A DNA stretch of 64,000 bases from a virus, in the IMG/VR virus record IMGVR_UViG_3300032267_001178, positions 8,959-72,958 of that record, one strand, 5' to 3'. Under the pieces are notes generated by a model. The model worked only from the letters and a program-made list of their open reading frames with translations. It made no database searches and had not been told where the DNA came from. The position numbers were made by a program, and so were the translations under genes. Positions 12,973-51,529 of the stretch are shown in pieces. Numbering within the stretch: position 1 is the first letter of the stretch; each line of letters starts with the position of its first letter.

Positions 12973-15900
12973 ATGGAATATCAGAAACGAGTCTACAGGA
13001 ACGAACGTCCTCCAGACCCAAAACAACCAGACTACGGTGAGCGTCCGCCCACCAAAATAGATTCCACCGGATATAAAAAAGGCGGTATCTATTACGTGGC
13101 CGGGGTAGGTCCAAAGCCTGCGCAGATTATGTTTATCGCACCTTCTCTCCTTGAGGAGGAAGCCGCCACGAAAGCCGAAAGTGTCACTGGGCGTACTATT
13201 ACGCAAGACGGTGCTTACTTACGCGGACAGGCGGGCGCGGTTTTCAAAGACTTGGCTTCCAGCGTGGGTATAGAAATGCAGGAATGCTATTTCACTGCCT
13301 GGTGTAAATGGTTGCTTCCTAAAAATAACAGGAGCAATCCCACCAACGAGCAAATGGATTGGGGAAGGCAGGCTCTCATGCGGGAGATTCAAGAAGTAAA
13401 ACCTGCAATCATTGTTTGCCTTGGAGGTAAGAAAATATTTGATGAGCTCTCCGGTATTACAGTGAAAGCCAAGGATGTCCGTGGAGGTTGGTTTCTCCAT
13501 CACGACTCCGGCGCCAAGGTGTATCTGATGGAGAACATGGCTTTACCTCTCATAAAGCCAGAGTATCTGGAAAAGTTTCGCGTGGATCTACGCAGTATCT
13601 GTAGGTTGTCCATGTCACTTTCCGGCATTGATGTTTACACACAGCCAACGAACTACATCACCATTAATAATTCTAATGAGATGCAGAAGTTGGTAGCCAT
13701 GTGGGCTTCCAAAAATATAAGATTGTTTTCGGTAGACTGTGAGTGGCATGGGAGTAACCACGTGAACGGACAGCTTAGGTCTATCCAATTTTGCTGGGCT
13801 CCAGGCGAAGCGGTTTACATCAGGTTCATGGATGATGCCTTGAACTATGTGTTCGACGTGGATTACCAAAAGGCGGGTATGCTTCTTGGTTCCTGGCTGA
13901 ACCGACCAGAATGCAAATACATAGGGCACCATTTTCCTGCGGATGCCCCGTGGATGTATTCGTGGCTAGGATTGGATTGGTACAACAAGTGCGTCTTTGA
14001 CACGGAGTTCGCACAGCAGACCGCCGACGAATATGAGGAACTAGGCCTTGAGCGCCTGGCCATGAAGTACACGGATTTGGGGCGTTATGACATTGAGCTG
14101 ACTTTGTGGAAAAAACAAAGCAAAGGCTTGTCCTCGGGTGGATATGGGCGTGTACCGGATGAGATACTTATTCCGTATGCTTGCCGTGACGTGGACACTG
14201 TAATGCGGGCTTATCCTTACATTTATGATAACTTACGTAAACAGGGATTGCTCGACTACTACCACGAAATATTCTTACCGTTTACGTCTAATATATTCAC
14301 GACGTTCTCTTTGCTCGGACTACCTATCGACATTGAGCAAATGTCAGAACTTCGTGAGCTCTACAGTTTTGCTAGGCAGAACTTGGAAGTAGCTCTTCGC
14401 ATTGCAATGCACGAGGAGGCTAAAAGTTTGCTGCTGCGTGAAATGTTCTTGATCAAAGGGAACCTTACAGGCCCGCAGACTGTGGAACTACTTGAGCTGC
14501 ATAAGGAAGTTATTGGGCAAATAGCTACAGGTGACGATGTAGACGATCCTTGGATGCTTGTGAAGCGCTACGTCGGCGTATCAGGAGTTGCCCGGATAAA
14601 ACCGTTCTTCGATCATTTAGTGGCTTCGCCAAGTTTTAATCTCAGAAGCAAGCCTCAAATGATGCGATGGCTTTTCGAGGTCAAAGGCTACATGCCTATT
14701 AAATCCACCAACAAAAAGGAAAAAGGATTGCCTTCGGTTTCTTGGGACCGGGTTATAAGGATGCCGCCGGAAGCTCGTAAAGAGTATTCTCCTTCCACAG
14801 ACATACAAACCTTGGAGATATTGTATGAGACTCATAATGATTCGGTTTTGGGATATTTGATCCGCCTTAACGCTGTGGGTAATATTACTAAGCAATTCCT
14901 CAAGGAGCCCATTACCGACGATGAAGGCAACATCACCCAAGAACGAGGATTACATGAGTCGCTTTGTTCGGACGGATGTGTCCACGGACAGATGAGTACA
15001 ACGGAGACCGGACGCCCAAGAAGCTGGAATCCAAATATTCTTAACTGGCCTTCCTGGGTTAACGACAAGATCACTGAGGGTATCCAGATTGCTCTAAAGC
15101 AAGCGGATGCAATTGGCACTTTGCCTGAAGCTTTCCGGAAATATTTGGAAACCAAACCTCCATCCATACGTTCTTGCGTCAAAGCTCCGGATGGCTGGTG
15201 TTTCGTGGAATCCGATTACCAGACTGCTGAGATCAGAGGGTTGGCGTTCATCAGCGGCGATGAGAATCTCATTCGCATCATGACTGAACCCGACCAGCAA
15301 TATAGAAAGATAAAAACAGAGAATGGGCAGGCTAAATTTGTTCGAGTTCTGTTTGACAATTTGCTCGGGATTTCAGAGGAATTGTACGGGCACCTTCTTT
15401 CGCCCGACGCCGACTTCGATGTAGATGCGGAAGGTAATTACATTTCTCCACAAGCAGACTTGCACTGGTCTCTGGCAGAAATGGTTACGCACAAGCCTCG
15501 TGAAATATTGAATAAGGATGTAGAGCGTAAGGGACTCGGTAAGGTGGGAAATTTCTCCTCTGCCTACGGAGCTTCTCCTACGACCCTAGAGCGAAAGATT
15601 GAGCAAGATACTGGCGTAAAACCCGAAGAAGGTACTGGGCAAGCGGTTCTAGATGCGCTACGGTTACGCCAGCCTGTGGCTGTAGCATTCTTGGAGCACA
15701 TGGAAAATGTTCCCGCGGAAGTGGGACATTATCGAAGTCCTTCCGGGCGTATACGTCACTGCCCCATGGCTACCGCCGTGGGAAGAGATGCGAAAAATTA
15801 CCTCGCATCTCTTGGGCGGGAAATGAGAAATTTCCCGATGCAAAATAACGTGGCGGACACCGCCGCAAGGGCCGCCAATTGGTTGTTGGATTACTTTGTA

Positions 15901-16137
15901 GCCAACGCCATGCAAGCAAGGCCCCTTATTGTGTTATATGATTCTGTAGTAACCCTGTGTCCGATATCGGAAGCACAAAAGGTTGCGGAAATGCACCAAA
16001 TTTTTATGTGCGATATGAACACTTGGACAGTGGAAAATAGGACATTCAATTACCCTATTGACACGGATTACGTAAAACGATGGAGCACGAAACCAAACGC
16101 CGAAGAAAGGCTTGAACTCGATAGCGTTCTGTCGTAA
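12973..16137 (+). CDS. polA: Family-A DNA polymerase with 3'-5' exonuclease and an N-terminal UDG-family-4-like domain.
   Basis: ExoI FSVDCEWHG; motif A DYQTAEIRGLAFISGDENL; motif B RKGLGKVGNFSSAYGAS; motif C region LIVLYDSVV. N-terminal residues about 30-190 align to the UDG family 4 pattern (ECYFTAWCKW...PAIIVCLGGKKIFDEL). Confidence 0.85.
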   Translation: MEYQKRVYRNERPPDPKQPDYGERPPTKIDSTGYKKGGIYYVAGVGPKPAQIMFIAPSLLEEEAATKAESVTGRTITQDGAYLRGQAGAVFKDLASSVGIEMQECYFTAWCKWLLPKNNRSNPTNEQMDWGRQALMREIQEVKPAIIVCLGGKKIFDELSGITVKAKDVRGGWFLHHDSGAKVYLMENMALPLIKPEYLEKFRVDLRSICRLSMSLSGIDVYTQPTNYITINNSNEMQKLVAMWASKNIRLFSVDCEWHGSNHVNGQLRSIQFCWAPGEAVYIRFMDDALNYVFDVDYQKAGMLLGSWLNRPECKYIGHHFPADAPWMYSWLGLDWYNKCVFDTEFAQQTADEYEELGLERLAMKYTDLGRYDIELTLWKKQSKGLSSGGYGRVPDEILIPYACRDVDTVMRAYPYIYDNLRKQGLLDYYHEIFLPFTSNIFTTFSLLGLPIDIEQMSELRELYSFARQNLEVALRIAMHEEAKSLLLREMFLIKGNLTGPQTVELLELHKEVIGQIATGDDVDDPWMLVKRYVGVSGVARIKPFFDHLVASPSFNLRSKPQMMRWLFEVKGYMPIKSTNKKEKGLPSVSWDRVIRMPPEARKEYSPSTDIQTLEILYETHNDSVLGYLIRLNAVGNITKQFLKEPITDDEGNITQERGLHESLCSDGCVHGQMSTTETGRPRSWNPNILNWPSWVNDKITEGIQIALKQADAIGTLPEAFRKYLETKPPSIRSCVKAPDGWCFVESDYQTAEIRGLAFISGDENLIRIMTEPDQQYRKIKTENGQAKFVRVLFDNLLGISEELYGHLLSPDADFDVDAEGNYISPQADLHWSLAEMVTHKPREILNKDVERKGLGKVGNFSSAYGASPTTLERKIEQDTGVKPEEGTGQAVLDALRLRQPVAVAFLEHMENVPAEVGHYRSPSGRIRHCPMATAVGRDAKNYLASLGREMRNFPMQNNVADTAARAANWLLDYFVANAMQARPLIVLYDSVVTLCPISEAQKVAEMHQIFMCDMNTWTVENRTFNYPIDTDYVKRWSTKPNAEERLELDSVLS

Positions 16138-19809: not shown

Positions 19810-20209
19810 CCATAAACAAGACGCAGATTTATTCCAAGGTTGGATCGAGCTTTTATTCAGAAAGAATGCTGCCCCGAAGCCAACCAATTTTTCGCAGTTA
19901 TTGGAAAAGTATTATGAGCGTAAAGGTTCTATACTTCCTATGTGCGAATACTGCACACCATTCGATGTGTACAGACAATTCAAAGATCCTAACGAAGAGT
20001 TCCCGCAAGGGTTAAAATCTTACGATATAATCAACTTCTGTGGTACCGAACAAAAACGAATAGTTACGGTAGTATTACTACCACCGGATACTATCAAGAA
20101 ATGGGAACGTCCGGATTGCTATGCTCAGTGCATACCGGATACACCTTTGGGTATTATGACGTTGCCCAGAATGTTCGATTCGTTCTATTTAAAGTACAAG
20201 AATGAATGA
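19799..20209 (+). CDS. Hypothetical protein.
   Basis: 136-aa ORF overlapping its neighbours. Confidence 0.35.
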   Translation: MPDSHKQDADLFQGWIELLFRKNAAPKPTNFSQLLEKYYERKGSILPMCEYCTPFDVYRQFKDPNEEFPQGLKSYDIINFCGTEQKRIVTVVLLPPDTIKKWERPDCYAQCIPDTPLGIMTLPRMFDSFYLKYKNE

Positions 20210-20753
20210 CTATACTATGGTTCGCAGGGTGGTTGATCCCACCCTGCGGGCTTACGCTTTTATCTATTCGCCACAATATGTTTCGGACGATAATAAATTG
20301 TTATTCCCGCACAATCCGTCGGACGTTCGGGAATTGAAATTTTCTTGGATGTATGTTGGACCTTCCGGGGTCGCATTGCCTGCTGAAGTACCTTTAACTT
20401 TTCATACAAATGCCGAAGAGGATATTGTATCAGTTTTGGGAAACTTGGTCAGTAGCGTATATCAACAGAACATTTATGGATTTTTTACGGTTCACGCAAA
20501 GTCCGTTTTTTCCAGAATGTACCGTTGGTATTGGTTACGAAAGCATCAGAATTCCATGGTAGCTTCTCACCTGAGCGATGTCGCAAAAATAACGATAGAC
20601 TTGTGCGAGGCGTTTCACTATCCTGCGGTACTCTCGTATGTTGAGCGTACAAGTTTTTGCGCGGATGATATTCAAGAATGGTTGAAGATATCAACGTCGG
20701 ATGTATCAGCTGAGCACGCCTTGTTACACGGCTTAGCTGCAAGATTACAATGA
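20202..20753 (+). CDS. Hypothetical protein.
   Basis: 183-aa ORF. Confidence 0.35.
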   Translation: MNDYTMVRRVVDPTLRAYAFIYSPQYVSDDNKLLFPHNPSDVRELKFSWMYVGPSGVALPAEVPLTFHTNAEEDIVSVLGNLVSSVYQQNIYGFFTVHAKSVFSRMYRWYWLRKHQNSMVASHLSDVAKITIDLCEAFHYPAVLSYVERTSFCADDIQEWLKISTSDVSAEHALLHGLAARLQ

Positions 20754-23407
20754 ATAATTTAGAATTAAGTATAAGAGACCGTTGGCCTGATCGCCCGGAC
20801 GAGCCCGATTGGGAACTTGTACGCAAGGGACTAGCCAATTTGGCCCCCGTGCTACAGCGTATGAAATATGACGGCTTACGGGAAGGTCAGGAGCCCGTAA
20901 TCATGCGGATCATGTCGCAGGCGGATACTATATGTATTTTGCCTACTGGTACCGGGAAGACTGCATGTTTTGTAATCCCGACTTTATGTATGGATTGGAA
21001 GGCTATTGTTTTCAGCCCACTGGTAGCGCTAATGCGTGACCAAGTTAAAGGATTGCATCGTATGGGTATTCCCGCCGCTGCGATGTCTGGGATGCAGACA
21101 GATGGGGAAAATCTTGATGCGGCCAGGCGTTGGCAGGACGGGGAATTAAATTTCCTATATGTCGCACCCGAACGCCTCAATAATGAGGCATTCAAAACCG
21201 CCATGGGGCACGTTAATCCCGACTTTGTTGTGATGGACGAATGCTTTGCCCCGGAAGTAGAAATATTTACAGACAAAGGGTTTGTTCGCTTTGACGCACT
21301 ACAGGACGACGCGAAAGTCGCTCAGGTCGATCCAGATACTAAGACCTTGTCTTTTGTTTCCCCTGATAAGGTGATTCGTCAGGAATACAAGGGAGACCTT
21401 ATACGCCTGCACTCTGGGCAGCTTTGTGATTTGCGTATGACCCCAAATCATGAGCTACTGGCTTTCTACGGAGATCGCTGGAAAAAGGAGACAGTCTCAA
21501 GGATTAAGTTCAATCACACGAAAAGACTTCTCGTAGCGGCAAAACATGAAGCGGGCAATCAAACCGAGCTTACCGCTATGGATAGGCTTTGCATCGCTTA
21601 CCAGGCTGATGGTAGTTCGCATTATGTACATCCCGACGAAAGTATCACTGCTGCATTTTCTTTTTCAAAGGAGCGCAAAATAAGTAGGTTTCTAAGTTTA
21701 CTTGAGCTCACCGGACTTTCATATAGTGAGGTGACCAATGAAAGAGAGAAATTGGATACGGGTAATCGTATCCCTCGCAGAAGATTCTTGGTACACAAGG
21801 TTTCTGGATTCTCTAAGGTCCTATCCAATATGTTTGACTTTGCATCTATGACCTCGGAAGTAGCTGCAGAGTTTATCCGCGAGGTCGCTCTATGGGATGG
21901 TAGTGAACCTTACCAGGGTTGCTTGTACTACTCCTCCATAATTAAGGAGAACGTAGACTTCGTACAGGCTGTAGCGATATTAGCAGGATATAAAACAAAT
22001 TTAGTACCCCAGCACGATGAAAGGTCTGCCAATTACTCCACAGTATGGCGTCTTTTTGTAAACACTGAGCGTGATTGGATTGGTACTCAGTGTTTGTCCC
22101 GCACCGAGGAATCTTATGACGGCCTGGTGTATTGCGTGCGCGTACCGCATGGGAACATTATTGTACGCGGTTCTGGGAAAGCCCTGGTAGTTGGAAATTG
22201 TCACACCTTATCCCAGTGGAGTGACAATTTTAGGCATAGCTATTGTAAGGTGGGCGATTTCATTCGGGAATACAATCCCAAGGTGGTAGCCGCTTTTACA
22301 GCTACGTGTCCCCAGCAGGTGGAGAACGATGTTCGCCGCGTACTGGGATTAGCGCACGCACGCAAACTCACCTTCTATCCCCGGCGCACAAATCTGGATC
22401 TTAGGAGCGATAATCTAGTAAGTGATATTTCTATAGCTGATAAAATCAGGGAGACGGAAGGTAGCACTATCGTTTACTGTTCCACTCGCAGAAAAGTTGA
22501 GGAGCTGGCTGAAACTTTGTCGCGGAACTTACGAGGTAAACAAGTAAGAATTTTCCACGGGGATCTTTCTCCAGGGGCTAAACGTGCGAACCAAGATGAT
22601 TTCATGGAAGGCCGCGCGAACATTGTTGTGGCAACTAACGCCTTTGGTATGGGCGTGGATAAGCCCGATGTTAGAGCTGTTATTCACCGTGATATTCCTG
22701 GTACTATCGAAGCTCTCGCTCAAGAGGTAGGCCGTGCCGGGCGTGACGGTAAATACTCGATCTGTATTACATACTTTTCTCAGGACAGTCTGGAAACGCA
22801 GAACTTCTTCTTACGTACAGGACATCCTCCTGTCGGCGACATAAAGAAAGTCTACCACGCGCTGAAACTCTCTGCTGATCGATCGGGCGTATGCAAGATC
22901 ACGGCCGATGAAATATCTACTAAAGCGAATGTTTCAAAATTTGGTATGCGGGCTATATTTGAGACCCTCAAGGGCTCTAACGTTATCGTACGTGACCAGG
23001 TAGATAAAAAAATATGCAAGCTTCGTGAAACAGATGCGGATGTACCTTCCGACAACGAGCGATACCACGACTACATGCGTGTAGTAGATAGCTTAGGTAT
23101 TCCGAACGATGAAGGATTTTATGAGTTCGATTTGAACGAGTTTGCCGACACCGTAGGCGTAGGGTACAGCACTGTGAGGGGCTGGTTTAAGCGTTGGGCT
23201 GAGAGCGGCTTCATTAGGTTTTGCGATCCTTATGTTGGGGCAGAGACTAGAATCATCGGAGACCTTTCTCTTGTTGATTTTGATCGCCTCGCTTTAAAAC
23301 GGGATGATGCTTACCGTAAACTTGACGACGTGCTGAAGTATGTAAATTTACCAGACTCGGAAAAACACGAGTTCATCGAATCCTATTTCCGCGTACATGA
23401 ATCCTGA
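20750..23407 (+). CDS. recQ: RecQ-family helicase. The reading frame includes an in-frame intein.
   Basis: Motif I ILPTGTGKTA; motif II split as VVMDE | CHTLSQWSDNFRHSY (cf. RecQ DEAHCISQWGHDFR); motif VI VATNAFGMGVDKPDVRAVIHRDIPGTIEALAQEVGRAGRDG. Confidence 0.8.
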   Translation: MNNLELSIRDRWPDRPDEPDWELVRKGLANLAPVLQRMKYDGLREGQEPVIMRIMSQADTICILPTGTGKTACFVIPTLCMDWKAIVFSPLVALMRDQVKGLHRMGIPAAAMSGMQTDGENLDAARRWQDGELNFLYVAPERLNNEAFKTAMGHVNPDFVVMDECFAPEVEIFTDKGFVRFDALQDDAKVAQVDPDTKTLSFVSPDKVIRQEYKGDLIRLHSGQLCDLRMTPNHELLAFYGDRWKKETVSRIKFNHTKRLLVAAKHEAGNQTELTAMDRLCIAYQADGSSHYVHPDESITAAFSFSKERKISRFLSLLELTGLSYSEVTNEREKLDTGNRIPRRRFLVHKVSGFSKVLSNMFDFASMTSEVAAEFIREVALWDGSEPYQGCLYYSSIIKENVDFVQAVAILAGYKTNLVPQHDERSANYSTVWRLFVNTERDWIGTQCLSRTEESYDGLVYCVRVPHGNIIVRGSGKALVVGNCHTLSQWSDNFRHSYCKVGDFIREYNPKVVAAFTATCPQQVENDVRRVLGLAHARKLTFYPRRTNLDLRSDNLVSDISIADKIRETEGSTIVYCSTRRKVEELAETLSRNLRGKQVRIFHGDLSPGAKRANQDDFMEGRANIVVATNAFGMGVDKPDVRAVIHRDIPGTIEALAQEVGRAGRDGKYSICITYFSQDSLETQNFFLRTGHPPVGDIKKVYHALKLSADRSGVCKITADEISTKANVSKFGMRAIFETLKGSNVIVRDQVDKKICKLRETDADVPSDNERYHDYMRVVDSLGIPNDEGFYEFDLNEFADTVGVGYSTVRGWFKRWAESGFIRFCDPYVGAETRIIGDLSLVDFDRLALKRDDAYRKLDDVLKYVNLPDSEKHEFIESYFRVHES
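21242..22198 (+). mobile_element. Intein of 319 aa with a LAGLIDADG-type homing endonuclease domain, inserted in helicase motif II.
   Basis: Block A CFAPEVEIFTDKG; block B MTPNHELLA (TxxH); LAGLIDADG-like LCIAYQADGSS and EFIREVALWDGSE; block F VPHGNIIV; block G KALVVGN followed by +1 Cys. Removing it restores DECHTLSQW. Confidence 0.8.
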
Positions 23408-23879
23408 AGAAGAAGCCACCAAAAAGCGCGAAGTGTTTCTGGCATGGTCAAAGACGCACCCGAAACCAACAGCTGAAGACGTTGTTGGTTTGCTTGCGCA
23501 GATGGGCAAGCCTAGCACGGTTGCAGATCCCGAAGCGGACCCTAGTAAAGTTAGGTGTGCGTGTAACAAGCTCGTTCCCTGCGAGCGGGTAGCAATTGTA
23601 AACACGGGGCACATAACCGCAATTGACCCGGTGTGTCCTCCTTGCCGTAACGATTTCGTAGACCAGGCGCGCTTGGTCTGCGTGAGATGTCGTTCGGTGA
23701 TTGGGTGGCTAGATCCTTGTGTAGACCCTCATGGGTTCCGTTTTGACAAGAAGCACTTTTACCATGTGGGTTCTTGCGCTGTTTGTAAAAAGGGTTTGAC
23801 TAAGTCTGACATCATCGAGATGATGCTTTATTATGAGGCCAATGGCATTCCTTACGAGAAAAATGAAATAATAGATTGA
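23397..23879 (+). CDS. Cys-rich (probably zinc-binding) hypothetical protein.
   Basis: Multiple CxxC pairs: CACNK..PCERV, CPPCRND, CVRCRSV, CAVCKK. Confidence 0.4.
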   Translation: MNPEEEATKKREVFLAWSKTHPKPTAEDVVGLLAQMGKPSTVADPEADPSKVRCACNKLVPCERVAIVNTGHITAIDPVCPPCRNDFVDQARLVCVRCRSVIGWLDPCVDPHGFRFDKKHFYHVGSCAVCKKGLTKSDIIEMMLYYEANGIPYEKNEIID

Positions 23880-24484
23880 TTATGACTACAACAACACCTG
23901 AGGTGGGATTGCGTAAAGTAAAACGCATTGGAACTAAAAAGATCTACGCGGTAAGAGTTTTACCTCCAGATTTTAAAATGGACGAGGAGGGAGGCGGCGA
24001 TACGCAATTCTTCTTTTACTACGTTTCTAGAAATTACAAACCAGTTTCTAGCGAGTGTACGAAGCATGTTTGGAAGCGAGCCGAGGGGCAGGCTGGTCCT
24101 GGAGTAGTACGGAATGGCTTTGACACGCTTTCTTCTTCCCGGGACTTTCTCCTTCACGAGAAAGACGGAAAGATTATTGCCGTGGATATCCTTCCCTCTA
24201 ATGCTTACACGTCTAAGACTTCTGCGCCCGCAGCGCTACATGATTTGCAACATATCGAAGTTGTAATCAATGTGTCTACGGGTGAAGTTGAATTTGTAGC
24301 CGTGCCTGTGGGAGTATCCAAGCAACAGCTCCAACAGCTGATCGGGGAACTGGATAAAGTCGATATGATTCAGGCCGGTGATACTCTTGGTGGTGCGTTC
24401 TACGTGCACGAACTTCAGGGCAATCGTGTCAAGATCTCTCCTCCAAGTAGGGGTTCCGCAGGGCGTGTAACGCAAATGGATTGA
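23876..24484 (+). CDS. Hypothetical protein.
   Basis: 202-aa ORF with ATGA overlap. Confidence 0.4.
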   Translation: MIMTTTTPEVGLRKVKRIGTKKIYAVRVLPPDFKMDEEGGGDTQFFFYYVSRNYKPVSSECTKHVWKRAEGQAGPGVVRNGFDTLSSSRDFLLHEKDGKIIAVDILPSNAYTSKTSAPAALHDLQHIEVVINVSTGEVEFVAVPVGVSKQQLQQLIGELDKVDMIQAGDTLGGAFYVHELQGNRVKISPPSRGSAGRVTQMD

Positions 24485-25672: not shown

Positions 25673-25705
25673 CAAAGGTCAGGATAAATCCTGGCCTTTG
25701 TTTTT
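25673..25705 (+). terminator. Rho-independent terminator.
   Basis: CAAAGGTCAGG-ataaat-CCTGGCCTTTG followed by TTTTT. Confidence 0.65.
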
Positions 25706-25760
25706 ATGTATTCGCTCATTGATAACTTGCCTTGAGTGGGGTTATAGTAACTACGACATT

Positions 25761-28463
25761 ATGCCTGCGCCCGAAGAAATAGAAATGCCCCCCAATGTCA
25801 AATTGCGGGATTTTAGCGATTTTGACACTGCGCGGACAGATATCTACGACCGCACCAAAAAGGCTTTGATCTCATCTTACCCCATGTCTTGGGGAGGTGT
25901 GCGTATGGAAGTAGCAGATGTTGATTACGACGGGCCGGAGAATTTCACGTTAGACGAGCAGAAAAAGGCACTATTAGAGGAACGCCACTTGTCCCGCCGA
26001 CTACGCGGTACTGTACGTCTGTTTGATGAGAAGACAGGTGATATGCTTGATGAGAACAAGGTATCCCTGATGCGGGTACCTTACCTCACCAATCGCGGAA
26101 CCTTTATCCATGGTGGTAACGAGTACACCACCATCATGCAGTCCCGCCTTCTTCCCGGGGTTTACACCCGCAGGCAGAACAACGGTAATCTGGAAACGCA
26201 GTTTAATCTTAAACAGTCCAGGGGTGCTTTTCGGGTAGGCTTCGAACCCGATACCACTCAATACAGGCTTAAGCTTGGGCAGGCTAACATGCACATGTAC
26301 TCCCTGCTTAAAGACCTTGGAGTACCCGACGATCGCCTCAAAAAAATGTGGGGGGATGAGATATTTTCTGCAAATGCTGCTAAATACGACTCCCGTGTGT
26401 TTGATAAAGCTTACGAGAGGCTTGTGCCTGCAAGGATGCGATCCGCTGATGCTAGTCGTGAGGACAAGGTCAAAGCTGTCAGGATGTCACTGGACGACGC
26501 ACAGGTCAACGCCAAGGTAATCAGCAAGAATTTACCTAATCTTTTCTCGATGTCCAAATCTGCGGAGTGGCAGGCACGTTGGGCGGGCAGGGAAGTAATG
26601 ATGGAGAAAATTGCATCTCGCGCACACACCGAGAAGTTCAAGCCGGACCTATCTCCCGACGAATGCTTTGAAGCCTTCACGGATATGTGCATGTTTAAGT
26701 GTGCTGGGGAAGAGTGGGACGAAATTGATAACACCGGACCTGACACGAATTTTTCTCCGGATCTCAAACCTTCTGATCTGCAAGAACAATACAGCAACCT
26801 GTATGGGCGCGTAGGTAATAGACTTGCAGGGATGAGCTCTTGGCCAAAGGAATGGATGCCTCCTGGTAGTAACCAACTAGGTTGGTTAGACTGGTATTAC
26901 GGATACGCTGATGGTAAGCGTACGGGAGATGACGATAGACAGATAAAGAGATGGAAGTCCTTTAAGGCTAGACACTTGTCTCAATTCCTGAAAAACCCAA
27001 CCCCCAGAAGAGCCTACGCCTTACGTAACTGGGCGGTCGACCCTTTGGTATATCTGGACGAATCATCCGCTGACGTTTTGAAGCGTCAGATGGATGAATA
27101 TAAATCCAGCAAATTCAAAAAAGCTGCTAGCGAAGATGACAGAGCAGCACAATTGCAATTGCTACTCGAAGCCAAGTCGCACTCAGACGCCAAGCGCTAC
27201 GGGCACAAGCATTTTCTGATACAGCGCTCAATGACAGATCGCCCCACCGAATGGGTCATCGACTCTCCCGGAGGCCCGTATCCAGGAGTCACCCATGTGC
27301 CTACTGGCTTCAGATTGCACATGGCATCTTCTAAAATTCCGCCTACAATACAAGTAGACGAAGCTTATGCGTTATCGAAACAAGCCGTCGCTGAGGATTC
27401 TAGGCAGGCCATCCTGGCTAAGACAGCGAATGTTATACGTAATTATGGTGAAACTGACAGCGGGCGGGAAACTATGCTTGCTACTCCAGACATTGAAGAG
27501 TCTTGGGATCTGGATATTGGCGGTAACCCGGATACGTTGGTCCTTGGGCGTATAAATGACAAATCTCGAGTATATGCGCTACCTGCGACTGAGGACGACG
27601 TTGATCAATCACCCAGAGCGCATATCGCCGTCCAAGATTTTTCTGACAAAGTGTCTGAGATAACAGCGTTAAAAACCCGCACGGACCATAGGCGTAAGGG
27701 GTTGGCTTCCGCGCTGGTCACACTATTAGACATGCTAGAGGGGCAGGACAGAGCTTTTGTAGTGAAGCCAGATCCAATGGCCGATAAAGCCGTACCGGCT
27801 GACGTACTTCTAAAATTCTATAAAGACAGGGGTTTCCAATCTTGGGGGGACCATGGGTATCTAGCTAAATACCCGGGCCAGGAGAAAGCTGCATATAACT
27901 TCGTTGTTTCCGGCGAGCAGACTCAAGGGATGGGCCTGCGTAAGGAGTTCCACCAGATACTGGAAGAGCTGGGACATAAAGGTCTGGCCGTGAACAACCC
28001 GCACACTAATGAAGTCGAATTGTCTGTCGACGTGGAAGATCCAAGTACGGTATTGGACGAACTGGTAAAGCGCATCAAGGATAGGAAGGGTAAGGATATT
28101 TTTTACACCCCTTCTACGCACTCATCGGATTTACAGCCAATCACCGTCGATAACGCTACGCTGGAGAAGCTGAGGTATGCACACTACAACGCATACCTAA
28201 ACAGCTCTCACTTCGACCCAAACGATACCGACATAACTCCGGCGGACAAACACCGGAAGGATATCGCGATACGCTACCGACTGGAAGACACACCCGAAGG
28301 ATTGGTAGGACACGTCCCGGAGAGGGCCGCGCGACAACTGAGAGGGGAAGAGATGCCTTACTCGTGGATGCCGCAGCCGGTTGAGAAAGCTGCATCCTTT
28401 TCCCAAATGCTTAAGCAAGCATCCGAAGATTTAGAACAAGCACGCGCACGCCTTAATTCATGA
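25761..28463 (+). CDS. Multisubunit RNA polymerase beta-like subunit, N-terminal fragment. The track start at 25698 is TTG inside the terminator, so the first ATG is used.
   Basis: RGTFIHGGNEYTTIMQSRLLPGVYTRR...AFRVGFEPDTTQYRLKLGQANMHMYSLLKDLGV aligns to the bacterial RpoB N-terminal motif NGTERVIVSQLHRSPGVFF...LDFEFD...RRKLPATIILRALG. Confidence 0.7.
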   Translation: MPAPEEIEMPPNVKLRDFSDFDTARTDIYDRTKKALISSYPMSWGGVRMEVADVDYDGPENFTLDEQKKALLEERHLSRRLRGTVRLFDEKTGDMLDENKVSLMRVPYLTNRGTFIHGGNEYTTIMQSRLLPGVYTRRQNNGNLETQFNLKQSRGAFRVGFEPDTTQYRLKLGQANMHMYSLLKDLGVPDDRLKKMWGDEIFSANAAKYDSRVFDKAYERLVPARMRSADASREDKVKAVRMSLDDAQVNAKVISKNLPNLFSMSKSAEWQARWAGREVMMEKIASRAHTEKFKPDLSPDECFEAFTDMCMFKCAGEEWDEIDNTGPDTNFSPDLKPSDLQEQYSNLYGRVGNRLAGMSSWPKEWMPPGSNQLGWLDWYYGYADGKRTGDDDRQIKRWKSFKARHLSQFLKNPTPRRAYALRNWAVDPLVYLDESSADVLKRQMDEYKSSKFKKAASEDDRAAQLQLLLEAKSHSDAKRYGHKHFLIQRSMTDRPTEWVIDSPGGPYPGVTHVPTGFRLHMASSKIPPTIQVDEAYALSKQAVAEDSRQAILAKTANVIRNYGETDSGRETMLATPDIEESWDLDIGGNPDTLVLGRINDKSRVYALPATEDDVDQSPRAHIAVQDFSDKVSEITALKTRTDHRRKGLASALVTLLDMLEGQDRAFVVKPDPMADKAVPADVLLKFYKDRGFQSWGDHGYLAKYPGQEKAAYNFVVSGEQTQGMGLRKEFHQILEELGHKGLAVNNPHTNEVELSVDVEDPSTVLDELVKRIKDRKGKDIFYTPSTHSSDLQPITVDNATLEKLRYAHYNAYLNSSHFDPNDTDITPADKHRKDIAIRYRLEDTPEGLVGHVPERAARQLRGEEMPYSWMPQPVEKAASFSQMLKQASEDLEQARARLNS

Positions 28464-32711: not shown

Positions 32712-34511
32712 ATGGCAGCCAACGGCGATTATCTGGCCCCTTTCACAAACGGAACAACGGGAAAGCAATTTAGCGATCCCTTCATGTTGCCGTCTAATGC
32801 TTCGTTTCCAACTGAGTTGGAGACTGCTTTGGATTTCTGTTTATACCTTTATTACATGAACCCTCAGTATCGGAGGGCTTCCATACGAGTGGTCAGCCAC
32901 TTCGTTACTGACGTTAACTTCACTGGCGAAGCCGGGGACGAACGTGAGCGGGACGAGTTGAGAAAATTCTTAGCTACCGATCTGGACCTCTGGGGTACGA
33001 TGTTGGAGCTGGGAGAAGAGTGGGCGGCTTACGGTAATGGATTCGTACGCCTGGATTTTCCCTTCAACCGCTTTTTACGCGACCCCCGAGGTAAGTACAA
33101 AGAATATGATTTGAGCATGTTCCCTACCTCCAAGGTCAAGTACCACTGGAAGGAGATGGTGTACGAGGTTCCAGACCCCATGCATACTCCGAATGGTGGC
33201 AGTGCCCAAAAGACGATTAAACTGAAGTTTATCGATCGTCCAGTTAAGGACATGTCCAAGATTAGATTCCACAAGCTGGATCCCAGATACGTTACTCTCC
33301 AGCATTCTTGGACTAGTAAGCGTACGCAAGTCATTTGGCGCTTTGAGCCCGAGCTGGCTAAGGCTGTAAAAGACGGCACGCTATATCAAGTCAATGATCT
33401 TCCGATGCCTATGCTTCAAGCTATTGCGGAAGACAAAGACTTCCTGTTTAAGGAGCATCAGATTTTCCATCTCAAGGCGCCCACTATTTCAGGTATATCG
33501 AATTACGGTTGGGGGCTTCCGGAGATCATCGCTAATTACAGATCCATACACCAATTGCAAGTTTACAAGAAAATCGACGAAGTGGTGGGCATGGACTACA
33601 TGCTTCCTTTCCGTATTTTCTCTCCACAGGTGAGTGGTAATGTGCAAGATGCGACCATTCAAACCTTGTTCGGACCTTACCGGGCAGAGATGAGTCGGAT
33701 GATCAAGGAGCGCAGGAAGGATCCCTTCTCAATGTACGCCCTGCCCTTCCCGGTTACTTATCAAGAGGTGGGATCACAAGGCAAATCCTTGACGCCTAAG
33801 GATTTGATGGAGTTCCAAGTGAATGATCTCCTGGACTCCATGGGTTACCCAGCGGAGCTTTTCCGTGGGTCCCTGCAAGTACAGCAGGTGCCTACGGCTC
33901 TTCGTCTGTTCGAGAATAGCTTTCACTTCCTACATCGTGGATTCGACCGTCTACTGAAGTGGACCACAGAGCGTGTTCTGGACTATATGGGACGTGAGCA
34001 AATTGGTGTGAGCCTTCAGCTTCCCAGAATGGCTGATGATCTTGAGAAGAGAAGCATTTACATGCAACTTGCGGCTGGGGCCGAAATCCCGCGACAAGTG
34101 GCGTACCGCCCTCTGGGCATCGACGACCCTGTCGAAGCTGCACGTCAACGCGCACAGGAAGATGCGGAGATCCAGAAAGAGGTTTCCAAAATTCAGCAGC
34201 AAGCCCAGAAGGAAATGCAGGAAGGTTCTATGGAGGGCGTTATTGCGGCACAACAAGCAGGTGGCGGTGGTGCTCCTGGTGGGGGTGGCGGTCCTGTCGG
34301 CAGCGGAAACCCTGTACGACTTCAGGAGGAAGCAATGTCTATTGCTCAAGAACTTATCGCTGCTGCGGATCCACAGGTAACTCGCCAAAAGCTAGCGGAG
34401 TTGGCAGTGAATCCAAATATGGAAGCTCTGGTGCGGAAATTCATGGAGGACATTCGCAGAGATGCGGCATCCCAAGGCCGCGCTTCGGCACCTCAAATGG
34501 TGCAAGGGTAA
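32712..34511 (+). CDS. Large hypothetical protein (599 aa), a possible virion structural protein of portal size. Its function is not supported by any motif.
   Basis: Long ORF with a C-terminal Gly-rich tract GGGGAPGGGGGPVGSG, followed by Gly-zipper and acidic proteins. Confidence 0.45.
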   Translation: MAANGDYLAPFTNGTTGKQFSDPFMLPSNASFPTELETALDFCLYLYYMNPQYRRASIRVVSHFVTDVNFTGEAGDERERDELRKFLATDLDLWGTMLELGEEWAAYGNGFVRLDFPFNRFLRDPRGKYKEYDLSMFPTSKVKYHWKEMVYEVPDPMHTPNGGSAQKTIKLKFIDRPVKDMSKIRFHKLDPRYVTLQHSWTSKRTQVIWRFEPELAKAVKDGTLYQVNDLPMPMLQAIAEDKDFLFKEHQIFHLKAPTISGISNYGWGLPEIIANYRSIHQLQVYKKIDEVVGMDYMLPFRIFSPQVSGNVQDATIQTLFGPYRAEMSRMIKERRKDPFSMYALPFPVTYQEVGSQGKSLTPKDLMEFQVNDLLDSMGYPAELFRGSLQVQQVPTALRLFENSFHFLHRGFDRLLKWTTERVLDYMGREQIGVSLQLPRMADDLEKRSIYMQLAAGAEIPRQVAYRPLGIDDPVEAARQRAQEDAEIQKEVSKIQQQAQKEMQEGSMEGVIAAQQAGGGGAPGGGGGPVGSGNPVRLQEEAMSIAQELIAAADPQVTRQKLAELAVNPNMEALVRKFMEDIRRDAASQGRASAPQMVQG

Positions 34512-44879: not shown

Positions 44880-45455
44880 ATGTATCAGAAACAAATAGAG
44901 CGGCTACAAAAGCTCATCAAGCATTTGGAGTATATTGCTGCTACAGAACCCAGAACCTTCAATTTGAAGCAATGGTTCGTAAGCGCAGACATGTCTTCAT
45001 GTGAAGAGGCGATAGCGCAATGGGCAGAGCGATACGAGAAGCAGCAACCTTTAGGATGTGGAACATCCGCCTGCGTAGTGGGACACTTACCATTAGTCTT
45101 CCCGGAAGATTTTGAATGGGAATTACAGTCTATCCCACTTATGAGCGGAGAACAGCAAGCCTATGTTTGTGGAAAAGGGTGTGTGGCTCATGGAGATGTT
45201 ACTTGCGCTACTCTGGCAGAGTACTTTGGAGGTAACTCCTCTGTTTGGGGCATGATCATCTACGAGGATGAATATGAGGAATCCCAAATGGTCTGGTATC
45301 CAGAAGGAACAATTGAAGTCCCCGTACAGGAGGTCACTAAGCGTATTAAGGATGTCCTGTTCGAAATCGAAAACACCCCAGCAGGGCGTACCCCGGACTG
45401 GACTAACCTCAACTGGAGAAGCTCCGACCGCATTGTAGAATGGACAACACCTTAA
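44880..45455 (+). CDS. Hypothetical protein with a CGTSAC motif (paralog of 43291..43743).
   Basis: GCGTSACVVGHLPLVFPEDF and VWGMIIYEDEY. Confidence 0.45.
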   Translation: MYQKQIERLQKLIKHLEYIAATEPRTFNLKQWFVSADMSSCEEAIAQWAERYEKQQPLGCGTSACVVGHLPLVFPEDFEWELQSIPLMSGEQQAYVCGKGCVAHGDVTCATLAEYFGGNSSVWGMIIYEDEYEESQMVWYPEGTIEVPVQEVTKRIKDVLFEIENTPAGRTPDWTNLNWRSSDRIVEWTTP

Positions 45456-45889
45456 TTGCTATTCTGTTTGGGCATTATTTGGGAGATTACCTCTTCCAGC
45501 CACGTCACATGGCTCGTAGGAAGATCTACAGCCCGTGGGTCTGTGTGATGCACTGTGCGATATATACGGCGTGTACAGTGCTGTCTTTGGTGCTGTGGGA
45601 CGTCTGGACGCTATCTGACCTGAACACTCGCACGCAAGATATCCTTATCTTCAGCGCGTTCGTATTCGGGAGTCATTACCTGATTGATAAGACATCCTTC
45701 TTCCGCTCATGGATGAAGTTTGTCCTGGGAGAGGACTTGGCAGATTATATCAATCTGGAAACCAGGAGCAAGAAGTCAGACAGGATCAATGTTGTCAGGA
45801 ATACGTTCAACACCGTTACCTACGTAGTTCTAGATAATGGCGCTCATATTTTCTTGAGCTTGTTGATGTTGGAAGTCCTGTTCGGTTAG
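45440..45889 (+). CDS. Hypothetical membrane protein.
   Basis: Hydrophobic segments LIAILFGHYLGDYLF and WVCVMHCAIYTACTVLSLVLW. Confidence 0.4.
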   Translation: MDNTLIAILFGHYLGDYLFQPRHMARRKIYSPWVCVMHCAIYTACTVLSLVLWDVWTLSDLNTRTQDILIFSAFVFGSHYLIDKTSFFRSWMKFVLGEDLADYINLETRSKKSDRINVVRNTFNTVTYVVLDNGAHIFLSLLMLEVLFG

Positions 45890-45919
45890 CGGATAGCTAA
45901 AAAAACACGGTCTAATAAA

Positions 45920-45960
45920 TAGCGCAGCATTTAAAATAATGCTGCGCTATTTTTATTTAT
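45920..45960 (+). terminator. Rho-independent terminator.
   Basis: TAGCGCAGCATT-taaaat-AATGCTGCGCTA followed by TTTTTATTTAT. Confidence 0.7.
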
Positions 45961-46155
45961 ATCCTCTGCAATTTAATTGCGAACCTTCCTACGAACTTAT
46001 GGATATTATCGAGTTCGTGTATGGATGATTAATAGGAGGATATTTAAATAAAATTGACCATGTGTTTATTCATAATTCAGGCAGAATTATGAATAAATGA
46101 TCGAGTGAAAACACGAGACGCATTTTTTGTCTAAGTACAACATAATAAAATACTT
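45961..46155 (+). promoter_or_regulatory. AT-rich intergenic region of about 195 bp upstream of the repeat-gene array. It probably holds the array promoter.
   Basis: It lies between a strong terminator and the first array gene and is AT-rich; no convincing sigma70 -35/-10 pair was found. Confidence 0.3.
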
Positions 46156-46416
46156 ATGAATGATGCAGTAGAAATACGTATAGAAGATTTGATACAGAAT
46201 GCGAAAATAGCCCATTCACGAGAACCTTGGGGTATTTTACATTGCGAGGAACAAGAAATCATAGCCTGGGTCCGTTCACGCCATGAAGCGCATATGACCT
46301 GGCGTTGTAAACGTTACAAGCATGGCATCCCGGGCCACGTAAAATTCAGTTCGTCTGGCCGTTCAATGCAGCAGATTAACATGCTGTACTACGGACACTA
46401 TCTACCCGAAGAATGA
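46156..46416 (+). CDS. Leader gene of the array, with no repeats.
   Basis: 86-aa ORF whose stop overlaps the first repeat unit start (ATGA). Confidence 0.45.
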   Translation: MNDAVEIRIEDLIQNAKIAHSREPWGILHCEEQEIIAWVRSRHEAHMTWRCKRYKHGIPGHVKFSSSGRSMQQINMLYYGHYLPEE

Positions 46417-46649
46417 TCATCCTGGGTGAGCACTTCCGCAGCGCCATTATCCTTCACAGTATCCAAGATGGTGTCGCAAGCAATGTCTGGGACAATGTTC
46501 AATGTAATTTCCAGACCGATGCCCGGCATAATGTGACTGTCAGTATCCGGGATGATATCTGGCATAAAGTCTGGAGTAATGGCATGAGCAATGTTCGTAA
46601 TGATGTTACGCGTCATGTCCTGTCCCACTTTCCAAAGAATAACAAATGA
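46413..46649 (+). CDS. Tetrapeptide-repeat small protein, unit 1 (divergent N-terminus).
   Basis: SNVWDNVQCNFQTDARHNVTVSIRDDIWHKVWSNGMSNVRNDV. Confidence 0.55.
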   Translation: MIILGEHFRSAIILHSIQDGVASNVWDNVQCNFQTDARHNVTVSIRDDIWHKVWSNGMSNVRNDVTRHVLSHFPKNNK

Positions 46650-46861
46650 GCGCCAACGAAGTAAACGACATCATCTTCGGAAATATCTGGTACAAAATCC
46701 AGAGCGATATACACCGCAATGTTCTTAACTCTGTATATAATAATGCCCGTGATAATGTCTTGTACGCTGTTCTACACAGTGTCGCACGGGATATTCGGAA
46801 TAATGTCGAGAATATTGTCCGTTATAGTGTCTCTTCACAGATTAAAAAACATACCGAATGA
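46646..46861 (+). CDS. Tetrapeptide-repeat small protein, unit 2.
   Basis: MSANEV...HRNVLNSVYNNARDNV...IRNNVENIV...KKHTE. Confidence 0.55.
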   Translation: MSANEVNDIIFGNIWYKIQSDIHRNVLNSVYNNARDNVLYAVLHSVARDIRNNVENIVRYSVSSQIKKHTE

Positions 46862-47103
46862 ATGCTGAAGAAGTGAGAAAGAGCGTCTGTAGCAATGTCA
46901 TGCAAAATGTCCGGAACAATGTCTTGTCTGACACCGAGTCTATTGTCTGTCACAATGTCGATAATAATAACGTACGGACCAATGTCTGGAATAATGTCCG
47001 GCATAATGTCGAGGACAATGTCTGGGGTAATGTCCGGAATAATGTCTTGGAGCATGCCGTTTTACAAATTCGCACACACATCAAATGCACCCGGAAGAGG
47101 TGA
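46858..47103 (+). CDS. Tetrapeptide-repeat small protein, unit 3.
   Basis: MNAEEVRK...NVMQNVRNNV...HNVDNNNVRTNVWNNVRHNVEDNVWGNVRNNV. Confidence 0.6.
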   Translation: MNAEEVRKSVCSNVMQNVRNNVLSDTESIVCHNVDNNNVRTNVWNNVRHNVEDNVWGNVRNNVLEHAVLQIRTHIKCTRKR

Positions 47104-47276
47104 GAGAGATTGTCTGGTACAATGTCGATGATAATGTCCGGGATAATGTCTGGATTAATGTACGGTGCAATGTTCCGGATAATTTCGGAAGGAATGTCCG
47201 GCATAATGTCCAGTTTAATGTCGAATCTAATGTTCAGGAAAACGTTCTTTTACAAGTTTACGCGCATATCGAATGA
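47085..47276 (+). CDS. Tetrapeptide-repeat small protein, unit 4.
   Basis: MHPEEVRE..YNVDDNVRDNVWINVRCNV...AHIE. Confidence 0.55.
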   Translation: MHPEEVREIVWYNVDDNVRDNVWINVRCNVPDNFGRNVRHNVQFNVESNVQENVLLQVYAHIE

Positions 47277-47467
47277 ATGCTAACGAAGTAAGTGATATCA
47301 TCTACGAAAATATCTGGGACAGCATCCAGTATTCTGTAACAGATGCTATCCATGTTCATGTCAGAGATAAAATCTGGACTGATGTTTGGTACAGTGTCCA
47401 GGATAATGTTGAGGAGCATGTCCGGAATAATACCCAGGACATACATGCCAATATCTGGCTGGAGTAA
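47273..47467 (+). CDS. Tetrapeptide-repeat small protein, unit 5.
   Basis: MNANEVSD...ENIWDSIQYSV...DVWYSVQDNVEEHVRNN. Confidence 0.55.
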   Translation: MNANEVSDIIYENIWDSIQYSVTDAIHVHVRDKIWTDVWYSVQDNVEEHVRNNTQDIHANIWLE

Positions 47468-47473
47468 TAACTA

Positions 47474-47779
47474 ATGAACGCTAACGAAGTTAAAGCCTTT
47501 GTGCATGTTAATATTTGGCGCAATATCCAAGATGGTGTCGCAAGCAATGTCTGGCGTAATGTCCGTGATAATGTAGAGGATAATGTCGCGTATACCGTTC
47601 TTCATAGTATCTCACACAATATTCGGAGTAATGTCGTAGGCAATATTTGGCGTAGTATCCAGCTCAATGTAGAGGACAGCGTTGATGATAAGGTAATGTT
47701 AATTATCCGGGAGGAGGTCTGGTCTAATGTTCATAATGTTCAAGACAATGTTCTAAGCTATGCAAGCGCCATTCTATGA
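47474..47779 (+). CDS. Tetrapeptide-repeat small protein, unit 6. It is longer than the others, and its conserved tail is left out of frame at 47776-47821.
   Basis: MNANEVKA...SNVWRNVRDNVEDNV...; the downstream YDVFEDVFSHFQTNE tail is encoded in another frame. Confidence 0.5.
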   Translation: MNANEVKAFVHVNIWRNIQDGVASNVWRNVRDNVEDNVAYTVLHSISHNIRSNVVGNIWRSIQLNVEDSVDDKVMLIIREEVWSNVHNVQDNVLSYASAIL

Positions 47780-47821
47780 TGTCTTTGAAGATGTCTTTTC
47801 ACATTTTCAAACAAACGAATA

Positions 47822-48070
47822 ATGAATGCTGATGAAGTAAGAGCCAGTATCTACGATAATGTTATGAATAACGTATCTCGTAATGTCCTGGCTAGGGTCT
47901 CCTACAAAGTCGACCGTAGTGTCGTGAACAATCTTTTGGGCGACATATGGTATGATGTCCAGGATAATGTTTGGAGCCATGTCTGGCGTAATGTCGGCGA
48001 CAGTGTCCGTACTTGTGTCTATGATAATGTCTTTGACGATGTCTTTTCACATTTTCAAACAAACGAATAA
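47822..48070 (+). CDS. Tetrapeptide-repeat small protein, unit 7.
   Basis: MNADEVRASIYDNVMNNVSRNV...DDVFSHFQTNE. Confidence 0.6.
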   Translation: MNADEVRASIYDNVMNNVSRNVLARVSYKVDRSVVNNLLGDIWYDVQDNVWSHVWRNVGDSVRTCVYDNVFDDVFSHFQTNE

Positions 48071-48273
48071 TGAATGCTGACCAAGTAAGAACCAGTATCC
48101 GGAATAAGGTCCTGAGTGATGTGTGGAGTAACGTTCAGGACAATGTCTGGAGTAATGTCTGGAGTAACGTGTGGAGCAATGTCGATGATAATGTCTCCGA
48201 TAATATTATGAATAATGTGTGGAATGACATCGCACACAATGTCCTCCCCCAAATGCGAGCGCGTATCGAATGA
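48070..48273 (+). CDS. Tetrapeptide-repeat small protein, unit 8 (the most regular repeats).
   Basis: MNADQVRT...DVWSNVQDNVWSNVWSNVWSNVDDNVSDNIMNNVWNDIAHNV...ARIE. Confidence 0.65.
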   Translation: MNADQVRTSIRNKVLSDVWSNVQDNVWSNVWSNVWSNVDDNVSDNIMNNVWNDIAHNVLPQMRARIE

Positions 48274-48497: not shown

Positions 48498-48535
48498 TAA
48501 CTAATTGTCCTCCCCCAAATGCGAGCGCGTATCGA

Positions 48536-50999: not shown

Positions 51000-51001
51000 T
51001 A

Positions 51002-51509: not shown

Positions 51510-51529
51510 ATGTTGCTTATCCTTTTATT

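Follow-up and report, generated by a model that had tools for sequence, protein, structure and literature searches.

The ATPases of replication and repair are known hosts of inteins, with insertions in the P-loop or Walker B motif of DnaB, MCM, RFC, and PolIII gamma, at several sites per protein, and with the PolIII gamma intein situated directly after Walker B (PMC4760082). Among phage inteins, the element in gp51 of phage Bethlehem, a recombination directionality factor (RDF), is a class 1 intein with Gly316 at the penultimate position that undergoes complete splicing in Escherichia coli; splicing is fast with Gly, whereas the G316H mutant is slow, needing over 5 h to reach about 50% splicing, and the endonuclease of this intein is toxic in E. 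coli and had to be inactivated (PMC5050341). The present article concerns a related element in a stretch of viral DNA of 64,000 nucleotides (IMG/VR virus record IMGVR_UViG_3300032267_001178, positions 8,959 to 72,958), referred to in its entirety as the window, where the gene of a RecQ-like helicase carries an insert within motif II (DExH). With a probability of roughly 0.93, this insert is regarded as a bifunctional, mobile class 1 intein in the helicase gene of an uncultured large phage, located between the Glu and the x of motif II (DE/CH, where the slash, here and below, marks a splice junction).

Insertion point and identity of the insert

The open reading frame (ORF) at 20750..23407 on the + strand is one uninterrupted frame of 885 codons plus stop, within which amino acids (aa) 165-483, corresponding to nucleotides 21242..22198, form an in-frame insert of 319 aa that splits motif II between Glu and x. 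The precursor reads ...AMGHVNPDFVVMDE / CFAPEVEIFTDKG ... GKALVVGN / CHTLSQWSDNFRHSY..., and the junction peptide predicted after ligation is ...VVMDECHTLSQW..., with ...MDE-CHTLSQW... as the spliced reading. A search with the full protein listed 120 homologues, from which 26 long and 9 short sequences were aligned by MAFFT. In 20 of the long homologues, an insert of 306-319 aa occupies the identical point, starting with Cys, ending with Gly-Asn, and followed by Cys-His, and the short homologues run straight through as DE(A or C)H. The nearest intein-free relative, P0002 (562 aa, 86% identity), reads ...DFVVMDECHTLSQWSDNFRHSYCKVGD, which is the predicted ligation product, and its contig is syntenic with the window over a RecA-like gene, three small ORFs, the helicase, and a 160-aa ORF. 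When the window exteins are joined for comparison at the DNA level, the junction is GATGAG/TGCCAC in the empty allele versus GACGAA/957 nt/TGTCAC in the window. The candidate endonuclease target of the P0002 type is ...ATGGATGAG/TGCCACACT..., and the empty site on contig L008 reads ...GTAGTTATGGATGAG/TGCCACACTTTGTCACAG....

All intein-bearing alleles (20/20) have Cys at the x of DExH; among 100 intein-free homologues this residue is Ala in 95, Cys in 4, and Gly in 1. In these sequences the +1 Cys tracks the intein, as would be expected if the +1 nucleophile travels with it; the intein-free DECH alleles, including P0002, may be either footprints of precise loss or pre-adapted sites.

Removal of the insert also restores the helicase to a single domain match. 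With the insert in place, the match to the NCBIfam RecQ models is split in two, whereas the protein with the insert removed in silico gives one match to TIGR00614 (recQ_fam) of 255.6 bits (cut-off 219.8) that spans residues 37-366 after splicing and model positions 6-339 of 470; similarly, the Pfam DEAD match extends from profile positions 2-126 to the full 2-165 once the insert is excised. In the spliced protein, the superfamily 2 (SF2) core has a DExH motif II and, after it, the aromatic-rich loop of RecQ; the sequence is DECHTLSQWSDNFRHSY, compared with DEAHCISQWGHDFRPEY in E. coli RecQ. The stretch SQWSDNFRHSY after the junction is the counterpart of the aromatic-rich loop found behind DExH in RecQ helicases such as that of E. 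coli, and the SQWxxxFRxxY pattern is retained in the spliced extein. The RecQ equivalog model TIGR01389 reaches 321 bits, far under its cut-off of 640, and the Pfam scan of the protein detected no RecQ_Zn_bind, RQC, or HRDC domain, with only a weak HTH_23 match. Since the TIGR00614 match ends at position 339 of 470, TIGR01389 stays below its cut-off, and the Zn-binding, RQC, and HRDC domains are undetected, the host protein is best described as RecQ-like and not as a RecQ orthologue.

An AlphaFold2 model of the insert, computed with 18 allelic sequences, has a mean pLDDT of 93.5 and a pTM of 0.91. Its top Foldseek matches in the PDB are endonuclease-bearing inteins, namely TliVMA (7qsu, E 3.4e-13), PI-PfuI, PI-SceI, and 2cw7, followed by Hint-only domains and free LAGLIDADG enzymes. 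The Hint (Hedgehog/intein) fold is thus present in the model, and the central domain shows the double alpha-beta-beta-alpha-beta-beta pattern of a double-motif LAGLIDADG enzyme, with packed first helices ending in an acidic residue and Gly; the two proposed motifs correspond to helices 112-123 and 205-219, each with an Asp-Gly end.

Homology extends over the whole insert. A tblastn search of the 319 aa against phage genomes returned 206 records, of which 202 cover at least 80% of the query, and among the matches listed the alignment typically spans residues 1 to 319 at 23-32% identity. The hosts of these homologues include nicotinamide phosphoribosyltransferase (NAMPT), ribonucleotide reductase (RNR) alpha and beta, thymidylate synthase, DNA polymerase, primase/helicase, the mycobacteriophage RDF phosphoesterase, and a ClpX-like ATPase, and in each case inspected the boundaries are Cys1 and Gly-Asn/Cys or Gly-Asn/Ser. 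Alignment of the allele profile with the U2 gp51 RDF intein by hhalign gave a probability of 98.5% (E 1.9e-15, 288 columns), the U2 intein sharing 99.8% DNA identity with the Bethlehem gp51 copy. A PDB sequence search with the intein found nothing significant (best E 0.32, the AceL NrdHF intein), and a protein-homologue search with the intein alone at E<=1e-3 returned none, though the database holds near-100% identical copies; this was taken as a limitation of the search, and the intein homologues were therefore drawn from tblastn and from an exhaustive profile search.

These results bear out most of an earlier note on this DNA, which was made from the letters of the sequence and proposed a LAGLIDADG intein exactly within motif II of a RecQ-like helicase. 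The ORF, the 319-aa insert, and its flanks (...DFVVMDE / CHTLSQWSDNFRHSY) are all present where they had been placed. The intein inside motif II is supported by full-length homologues in unrelated phage proteins, by the alignment with the gp51 RDF intein, and by the empty-site allele, and the comparison with helicases lacking the insert, which the note had suggested, found in P0002 exactly the predicted ligation product. The RecQ-like assignment is upheld by a spliced extein that scores above the NCBIfam RecQ-family cut-off and keeps the SQWxxxFRxxY loop, and the single TIGR00614 match after excision answers the test, set beforehand, of whether the flanking exteins form a contiguous RecQ motif II. 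The endonuclease claimed for the insert likewise holds, in view of the paired helices ending in Asp-Gly and despite the silence of the Pfam LAGLIDADG profiles discussed below.

Catalytic signature, alternative readings, and proposed splicing

The conservation of the intein was assessed in 18 aligned alleles, 41-57% identical to the window intein, in which the invariant residues include Cys1, Thr67, His70, Cys298, Arg309, Lys313, Gly318, and Asn319. The nucleophiles Cys1, Asn319, and +1 Cys are present, the last in all 20 intein-bearing alleles, and the Thr-x-x-His element of block B is formed by the invariant Thr67-Pro-Asn-His70. In 166 full-length copies retrieved from the clade, Cys1 is found in 166/166, Cys at position 4 of block F (F:4) in 165/166, and the penultimate Gly in 165/166, while 153 copies have Cys at +1, 11 have Ser, and 2 have Thr; the same residue set is fixed in remote homologues from seven other host proteins. 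Blocks A, B, and G, the penultimate Gly, the +1 Cys, and the two LAGLIDADG-like motifs all occur where the earlier note had them, and a block F is present as it had said; only the start of this block had been placed too late, as the true block, LVYCVRVPHGNIIV, includes the invariant F:4 Cys, and His303, which the note had counted in, is not conserved. Both presumed catalytic Asp residues are kept in the central LAGLIDADG domain of the window copy. One or both motif Asp residues have been lost in the homologues P0021 (AFQVGGS, WDST) and P0023 and P0027 (AWCPS) with the splicing residues intact, a pattern that would be consistent with alleles at different stages of the homing cycle.

Several observations weigh against the assignment as an active class 1 intein and should be considered together. 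The curated profiles respond weakly, with 23.7 bits for Pfam Intein_splicing (PF14890) against a cut-off of 35.8, 19.8 bits for TIGR01445 against 24.5, and no match to Pfam LAGLIDADG_1, _2, or _3 at E<=1; the Hom_end_hint family was also not detected in the intein by the Pfam scan. The canonical assisting residues F:4 Asp, block F His, and penultimate His are replaced by Cys298, Asn305, and Gly318; Asn305 (Cys in some alleles) is presumed to stand at the place of the usual block F His, as judged by eye against the canonical Mtu RecA and Ssp DnaE inteins. With three assisting residues absent, the catalytic details are drawn by analogy with one tested relative of about 23% identity. Splicing and endonuclease activity are predicted for the window copy, and the only homologue with demonstrated splicing is the Bethlehem gp51 intein (PMC5050341). 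Position F:4 is most commonly Asp, with Cys second, largely owing to class 3 inteins (PMC4031507), and since F:4 Cys is the hallmark nucleophile of that class, Cys1 is no more than the presumed initiating nucleophile; no mutants of Cys1 or F:4 Cys were found reported for this clade in the literature searched. Finally, no co-conversion tract, and hence no sign of recent homing, is visible around the junction in comparison with the empty allele (flank identity 65-82% versus 74% overall).

The sub-threshold profile scores are read as a sensitivity limit for a divergent clade and not as evidence against the fold. The intein profile hit on which the earlier note had made its claim depend was obtained in a weak form, both PF14890 and TIGR01445 scoring and both remaining below their cut-offs. 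The assisting residues, for their part, are common in inteins and not defining. The structure, the homology across unrelated hosts, and the characterized relative settle the intein call despite the weak curated profiles.

The F:4 Cys nevertheless raises the question of a class-3-like or hybrid route, in which Cys298 would attack the N-terminal junction, a branched thioester would form, and the N-extein would pass to the +1 Cys, with Cys1 dispensable or redundant. Class 3 inteins depend on this Cys as their obligate nucleophile (PMC2807308, PMC4031507), and a phage origin has been proposed for them (PMC4031507); in the present clade it is found in 18/18 alleles and 165/166 copies. Such a route is improbable, given that the Trp-Cys-Thr (WCT) triplet is incomplete, with Leu, Met, Phe, or Ile at B:12 and an unconserved Val, Ile, Thr, or Met at G:5 (Leu and Val in the window), and that Cys1 occurs in 166/166 copies, which is hard to explain for a dispensable residue in a class defined by its absence. 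Moreover, the RDF member of the clade was handled as class 1 by Kelley et al. (PMC5050341), and a class 1 intein onto which the WCT triplet had been grafted did not splice (PMC7664689), so that a lone F:4 Cys is unlikely to suffice. Class 3 was accordingly rejected as the principal interpretation, on the invariant Cys1 and the absence of Trp(B:12) and Thr(G:5).

The absence of F:4 Asp and of the His residues in block F and at the penultimate position, the sub-threshold intein profiles, and the decayed endonuclease motifs of some alleles could instead be taken to indicate an insertion of intein origin that has decayed or been domesticated and has lost splicing, whether as a permanent domain or within a helicase pseudogene. 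The invariance of the nucleophiles and of the TxxH pair across alleles only 41-57% identical to the window intein argues for selection for splicing, the non-canonical residues are fixed clade-wide, including in the member shown to splice efficiently (PMC5050341), and the reading frame is intact, with no stop codons. In addition, a 319-aa domain lodged between the Glu and His of motif II would break up the ATPase site, and even so the exteins remain well conserved, at 86% amino acid identity with the intein-free orthologue. Decay is regarded as very improbable. A self-splicing group I or II intron, removed at the RNA level and carrying a LAGLIDADG ORF that is in frame by chance, has in its favor the frequent presence of LAGLIDADG endonucleases in group I introns and of such introns in phage genes. 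The region 20000..24000 has no Rfam match even with the threshold relaxed to E<=1, the insert keeps the frame exactly, with Cys at its start and Asn-Cys at its end, and the homologues in eight unrelated genes keep both the frame and the terminal residues. With the Hint fold present and no Rfam match, the intron was rejected, and its probability is regarded as negligible.

For the favored reading, a class 1 pathway with non-standard assisting residues, the order of events can be proposed from the conserved residues and the tested relative. Translation would yield an 885-aa precursor that should be inactive as a helicase, because the insert places the Walker B Asp-Glu 319 residues away from the DExH His and the RecQ aromatic loop. 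The two halves of the Hint fold, aa 1 to approximately 100 and approximately 283 to 319, would fold together, after which an N-S acyl shift at Cys1, helped by Thr67 and His70, transfer of the thioester to the +1 Cys484, and cyclization of Asn319 would free the intein, and an S-N shift would restore the native ...MDE-CHTLSQW... in a 566-aa helicase. The clade would thus splice without F:4 Asp, block F His, and penultimate His, with the invariant Cys298, Arg309, Lys313, and Gly318 present instead. During co-infection, the endonuclease would presumably cut intein-free helicase alleles at the DE/xH coding sequence, and repair would copy the intein into the cut allele together with the needed +1 Cys codon.

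A more far-reaching and rather doubtful interpretation is that inteins combining Cys1, F:4 Cys, and penultimate Gly with the lack of a block F His form a mechanistically distinct and undissected subclass. Under this interpretation, Cys298 could possibly act as a relay or second nucleophile, giving a hybrid of class 1 and class 3, or it could possibly form a disulfide with Cys1 or Cys+1, giving redox-gated maturation of the helicase during infection; a disulfide-bonded precursor conformer was observed in the RDF G316H mutant (PMC5050341). If true, an abundant phage clade aimed mainly at the Walker B DE/xH site of helicases would go beyond a sequence variant of class 1 and make up a new class in mechanism or regulation.

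Clade distribution and genomic surroundings

When the clade profile was run exhaustively against 1.84 billion cluster representatives, the matching proteins numbered 14,232 at E<=1e-3; stricter thresholds left 8,837 (E<=1e-10) and 1,578 (E<=1e-30), and almost all of the best 150 proteins matched the full profile. The insertion site has the form hhhDE/C...GN/CH in 125/166 (75%) of the full-length copies retrieved, and RecQ-like hosts account for only 20/166. The other spliced hosts comprise ResIII/DEAD SF2 helicases, UvsW-like helicases, a clamp-loader-like protein (VFDE/CN), and a PIF1/RecD-like superfamily 1 helicase (GDD/CQ). The window intein is one representative of a very large, mostly phage and metagenome clade specializing in the Walker B/motif II position, and the DE/C-type sites shared across assorted hosts suggest that site recognition is tied to the Walker B coding sequence.

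Two further records illustrate the range of hosts. In the 540-kb megaphage Prevotella phage Lak-A1 (L007, MK250015.1 81097-87041), the match at 2501-3445 reads IVFLDE/CFDGNT...VTVTGN/CDKIARK in a record without annotation, and its host, judged by eye, is a ClpX-like AAA+ ATPase with the intein at Walker B. In Staphylococcus phage Romulus (L004, NC_020877.1 61875-67843), the RNR alpha gene with a related intein is annotated as several separate features, with free-standing 'homing endonuclease' and 'HNH endonuclease' ORFs in between, forming a dense patch of mobile elements in one gene.

The phage RecQ-like helicase family is itself an intein hot-spot, as other, unrelated inteins occupy further sites, giving at least six distinct insertion points in all, spread over motifs I, II, V, and VI; several proteins carry two inteins, the highest number seen in one protein. 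Motif I is interrupted as PT(S or G)/C...HN/TGKT in P0006, P0007, P0101, P0104, P0114, P0116, and P0117, and the P-loop after GK in P0014 and P0019; motif II is interrupted two residues downstream of the window's site in P0100 (DEAH/C...HN/C), motif V in P0018 (GMGVDKA/...HN/S), and motif VI in P0078 (QE/C...HN/CGR). The coordinates of the window gene and its parts are collected in Table 1.

Table 1. Features of the intein-containing helicase gene, with positions in the window
Feature	Position	Strand	Basis or remark
Intein-containing RecQ-like helicase gene	20750..23407	+	885-aa precursor, predicted 566-aa mature protein; DEAD and Helicase_C domains, NCBIfam RecQ-family match
N-extein, aa 1-164; contains helicase motifs I and Ia and stops at the Walker B (motif II) Asp-Glu, end ...DFVVMDE	20750..21241	+	Colinear with intein-free orthologue P0002
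Intein, 319 aa, Cys1 ... Gly318-Asn319	21242..22198	+	Model, fold matches, full-length homologues, hhalign
Splicing block A, CFAPEVEIFTDKG; Cys1 presumed first nucleophile	21242..21280	+	Cys1 in 18/18 alleles, 166/166 clade copies
Splicing block B, LCDLRMTPNHELLA; Thr67 and His70 (TxxH)	21422..21463	+	Both invariant; B:12 is Leu, not Trp
LAGLIDADG homing-endonuclease domain, approx. aa 108-280	21563..22081	+	Approximate boundaries from model secondary structure
LAGLIDADG motif 1, LCIAYQADGSS; presumed catalytic Asp123	21587..21619	+	A122, D123, G124 at least 90% conserved; ends helix 112-123
LAGLIDADG motif 2, EFIREVALWDGSE; presumed catalytic Asp219	21869..21907	+	W218 invariant, D219 at least 90% conserved; ends helix 205-219
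Splicing block F, LVYCVRVPHGNIIV; Cys298 at F:4 (usually Asp)	22124..22165	+	Cys298 invariant in alleles, 165/166 clade copies; numbering per PMC4031507, PMC2807308
Splicing block G, ALVVGN; penultimate Gly318 for His, terminal Asn319	22181..22198	+	Both invariant; penultimate Gly in 165/166 clade copies
C-extein, aa 484-885 plus stop; +1 Cys (the x of DExH), RecQ-type loop HTLSQWSDNFRHSY, motifs III-VI, non-canonical C-terminal region	22199..23407	+	

The stop codon of the upstream ORF overlaps the helicase start (ATGA at 20750) and the downstream ORF starts 11 nt before the end of the helicase gene, so the gene is part of a tightly packed operon. The G+C content of the insert, 45.8%, differs little from the 47.8% of both the exteins and the window. 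The neighboring genes encode an SbcC-like ATPase, an SF2 helicase, a DnaB-like helicase, a primase, a uracil-DNA-glycosylase-exonuclease-PolA fusion, and a UvsX-like recombinase, and the neighborhood is a phage replication and recombination module; the large ORFs of the window are all on the same strand. The identical 885-aa protein is present on 4 metagenome contigs. Megablast of the gene against phage genomes gave no match and tblastn with the DNA polymerase of the phage gave distant relatives only; the phage has no close sequenced isolate. A comparison of the clade profile with all 406 stop-to-stop frames of at least 60 aa in the window revealed no second intein copy of this clade.

Some further features of the window were recorded. 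The DNA polymerase (12973..16137, +; 1054 aa) is an unusual fusion of an N-terminal uracil-DNA-glycosylase-superfamily domain, a 3'-5' exonuclease, and a family A polymerase. The segment 29327..30043 (+) is equivalent to 18578-19294 of contig L010, where a 238-aa ORF has a weak precomputed RNA_pol_Rpb2_3 match, a hint of a possible split multisubunit RNA polymerase like those of jumbo phages. The large ORFs nearby at 25698..28463 and 32712..34511 have no Pfam or PHROG match. The stretch 45440..52344 (+) comprises about 7 kb without any ORF of at least 150 aa and with some 25 same-strand small ORFs of 70-110 aa, which is typical of phage early or accessory gene arrays. The sole tRNA gene found in the window is a tRNA-Arg with anticodon TCT (63707..63783, +).

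Relation to known inteins

The gene described here is one helicase plus one intein, and not an 885-aa protein with an unknown domain. The public homologues are annotated with helicase domain labels only, and since neither the intein nor the endonuclease reaches the standard Pfam and TIGRFAM thresholds, similar genes are probably under-annotated. An intein in a RecQ-family helicase was not found described in the literature searched: RecQ has 0 occurrences in the text of the survey of inteins in ATPases (PMC4760082), and the one paper rich in both terms treats them separately, with inteins in GyrB and DnaE.

The archaeal and yeast inteins of known structure to which the window intein is comparable, TliVMA (7qsu), PI-PkoII (2cw8), PI-PfuI (1dq3), and PI-SceI (1vde), share 9-17% identity with it and are longer, at 360-540 aa versus 319 aa; PI-SceI and PI-PfuI have additional regions for DNA recognition. 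Class 3 (WCT) inteins, such as those of MP-Be DnaB, MchDnaB1, and AceL NrdHF, share the F:4 Cys and the association with phages and helicases (PMC2807308, PMC7664689), but the window intein falls outside the definition of that class, having an invariant Cys1, no Trp at B:12, and no Thr at G:5. The Bethlehem/U2 gp51 intein, hosted by a metallophosphoesterase RDF, resembles the window intein in clade and size (317 vs 319 aa) and has in common with it Cys1, TxxH, the F:4 Cys (VWCLRVP), the penultimate Gly, the terminal Asn, and a LAGLIDADG-type domain. The identity between the two is only about 23%, and their sites are different, the gp51 intein lying in the phosphoesterase at ...GNHD/C ... TGN/S with a +1 Ser, and the window intein in the helicase at DE/CH with a +1 Cys; the gp51 host is an actinophage, unlike the window phage.

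Already known in kind are the Walker A and Walker B inteins of replication ATPases, phage inteins without a penultimate His, and the clade itself, through its studied member (PMC5050341), and the current understanding of inteins is not overturned by this finding. The abundance of the clade and its odd catalytic signature, by comparison, are under-described. For protein engineering, the clade offers fast-splicing inteins that have no penultimate His. With the element described here, a RecQ-like helicase joins the replication and repair ATPases invaded by inteins at their catalytic motifs; the insertion principle is the same as in the replication-ATPase inteins, with the distinction that the window clade is mainly phage and metagenomic, and one clade with an unusual signature has colonized the Walker B DE/x site in many unrelated P-loop ATPases, which raises the question of how its endonucleases recognize their targets.

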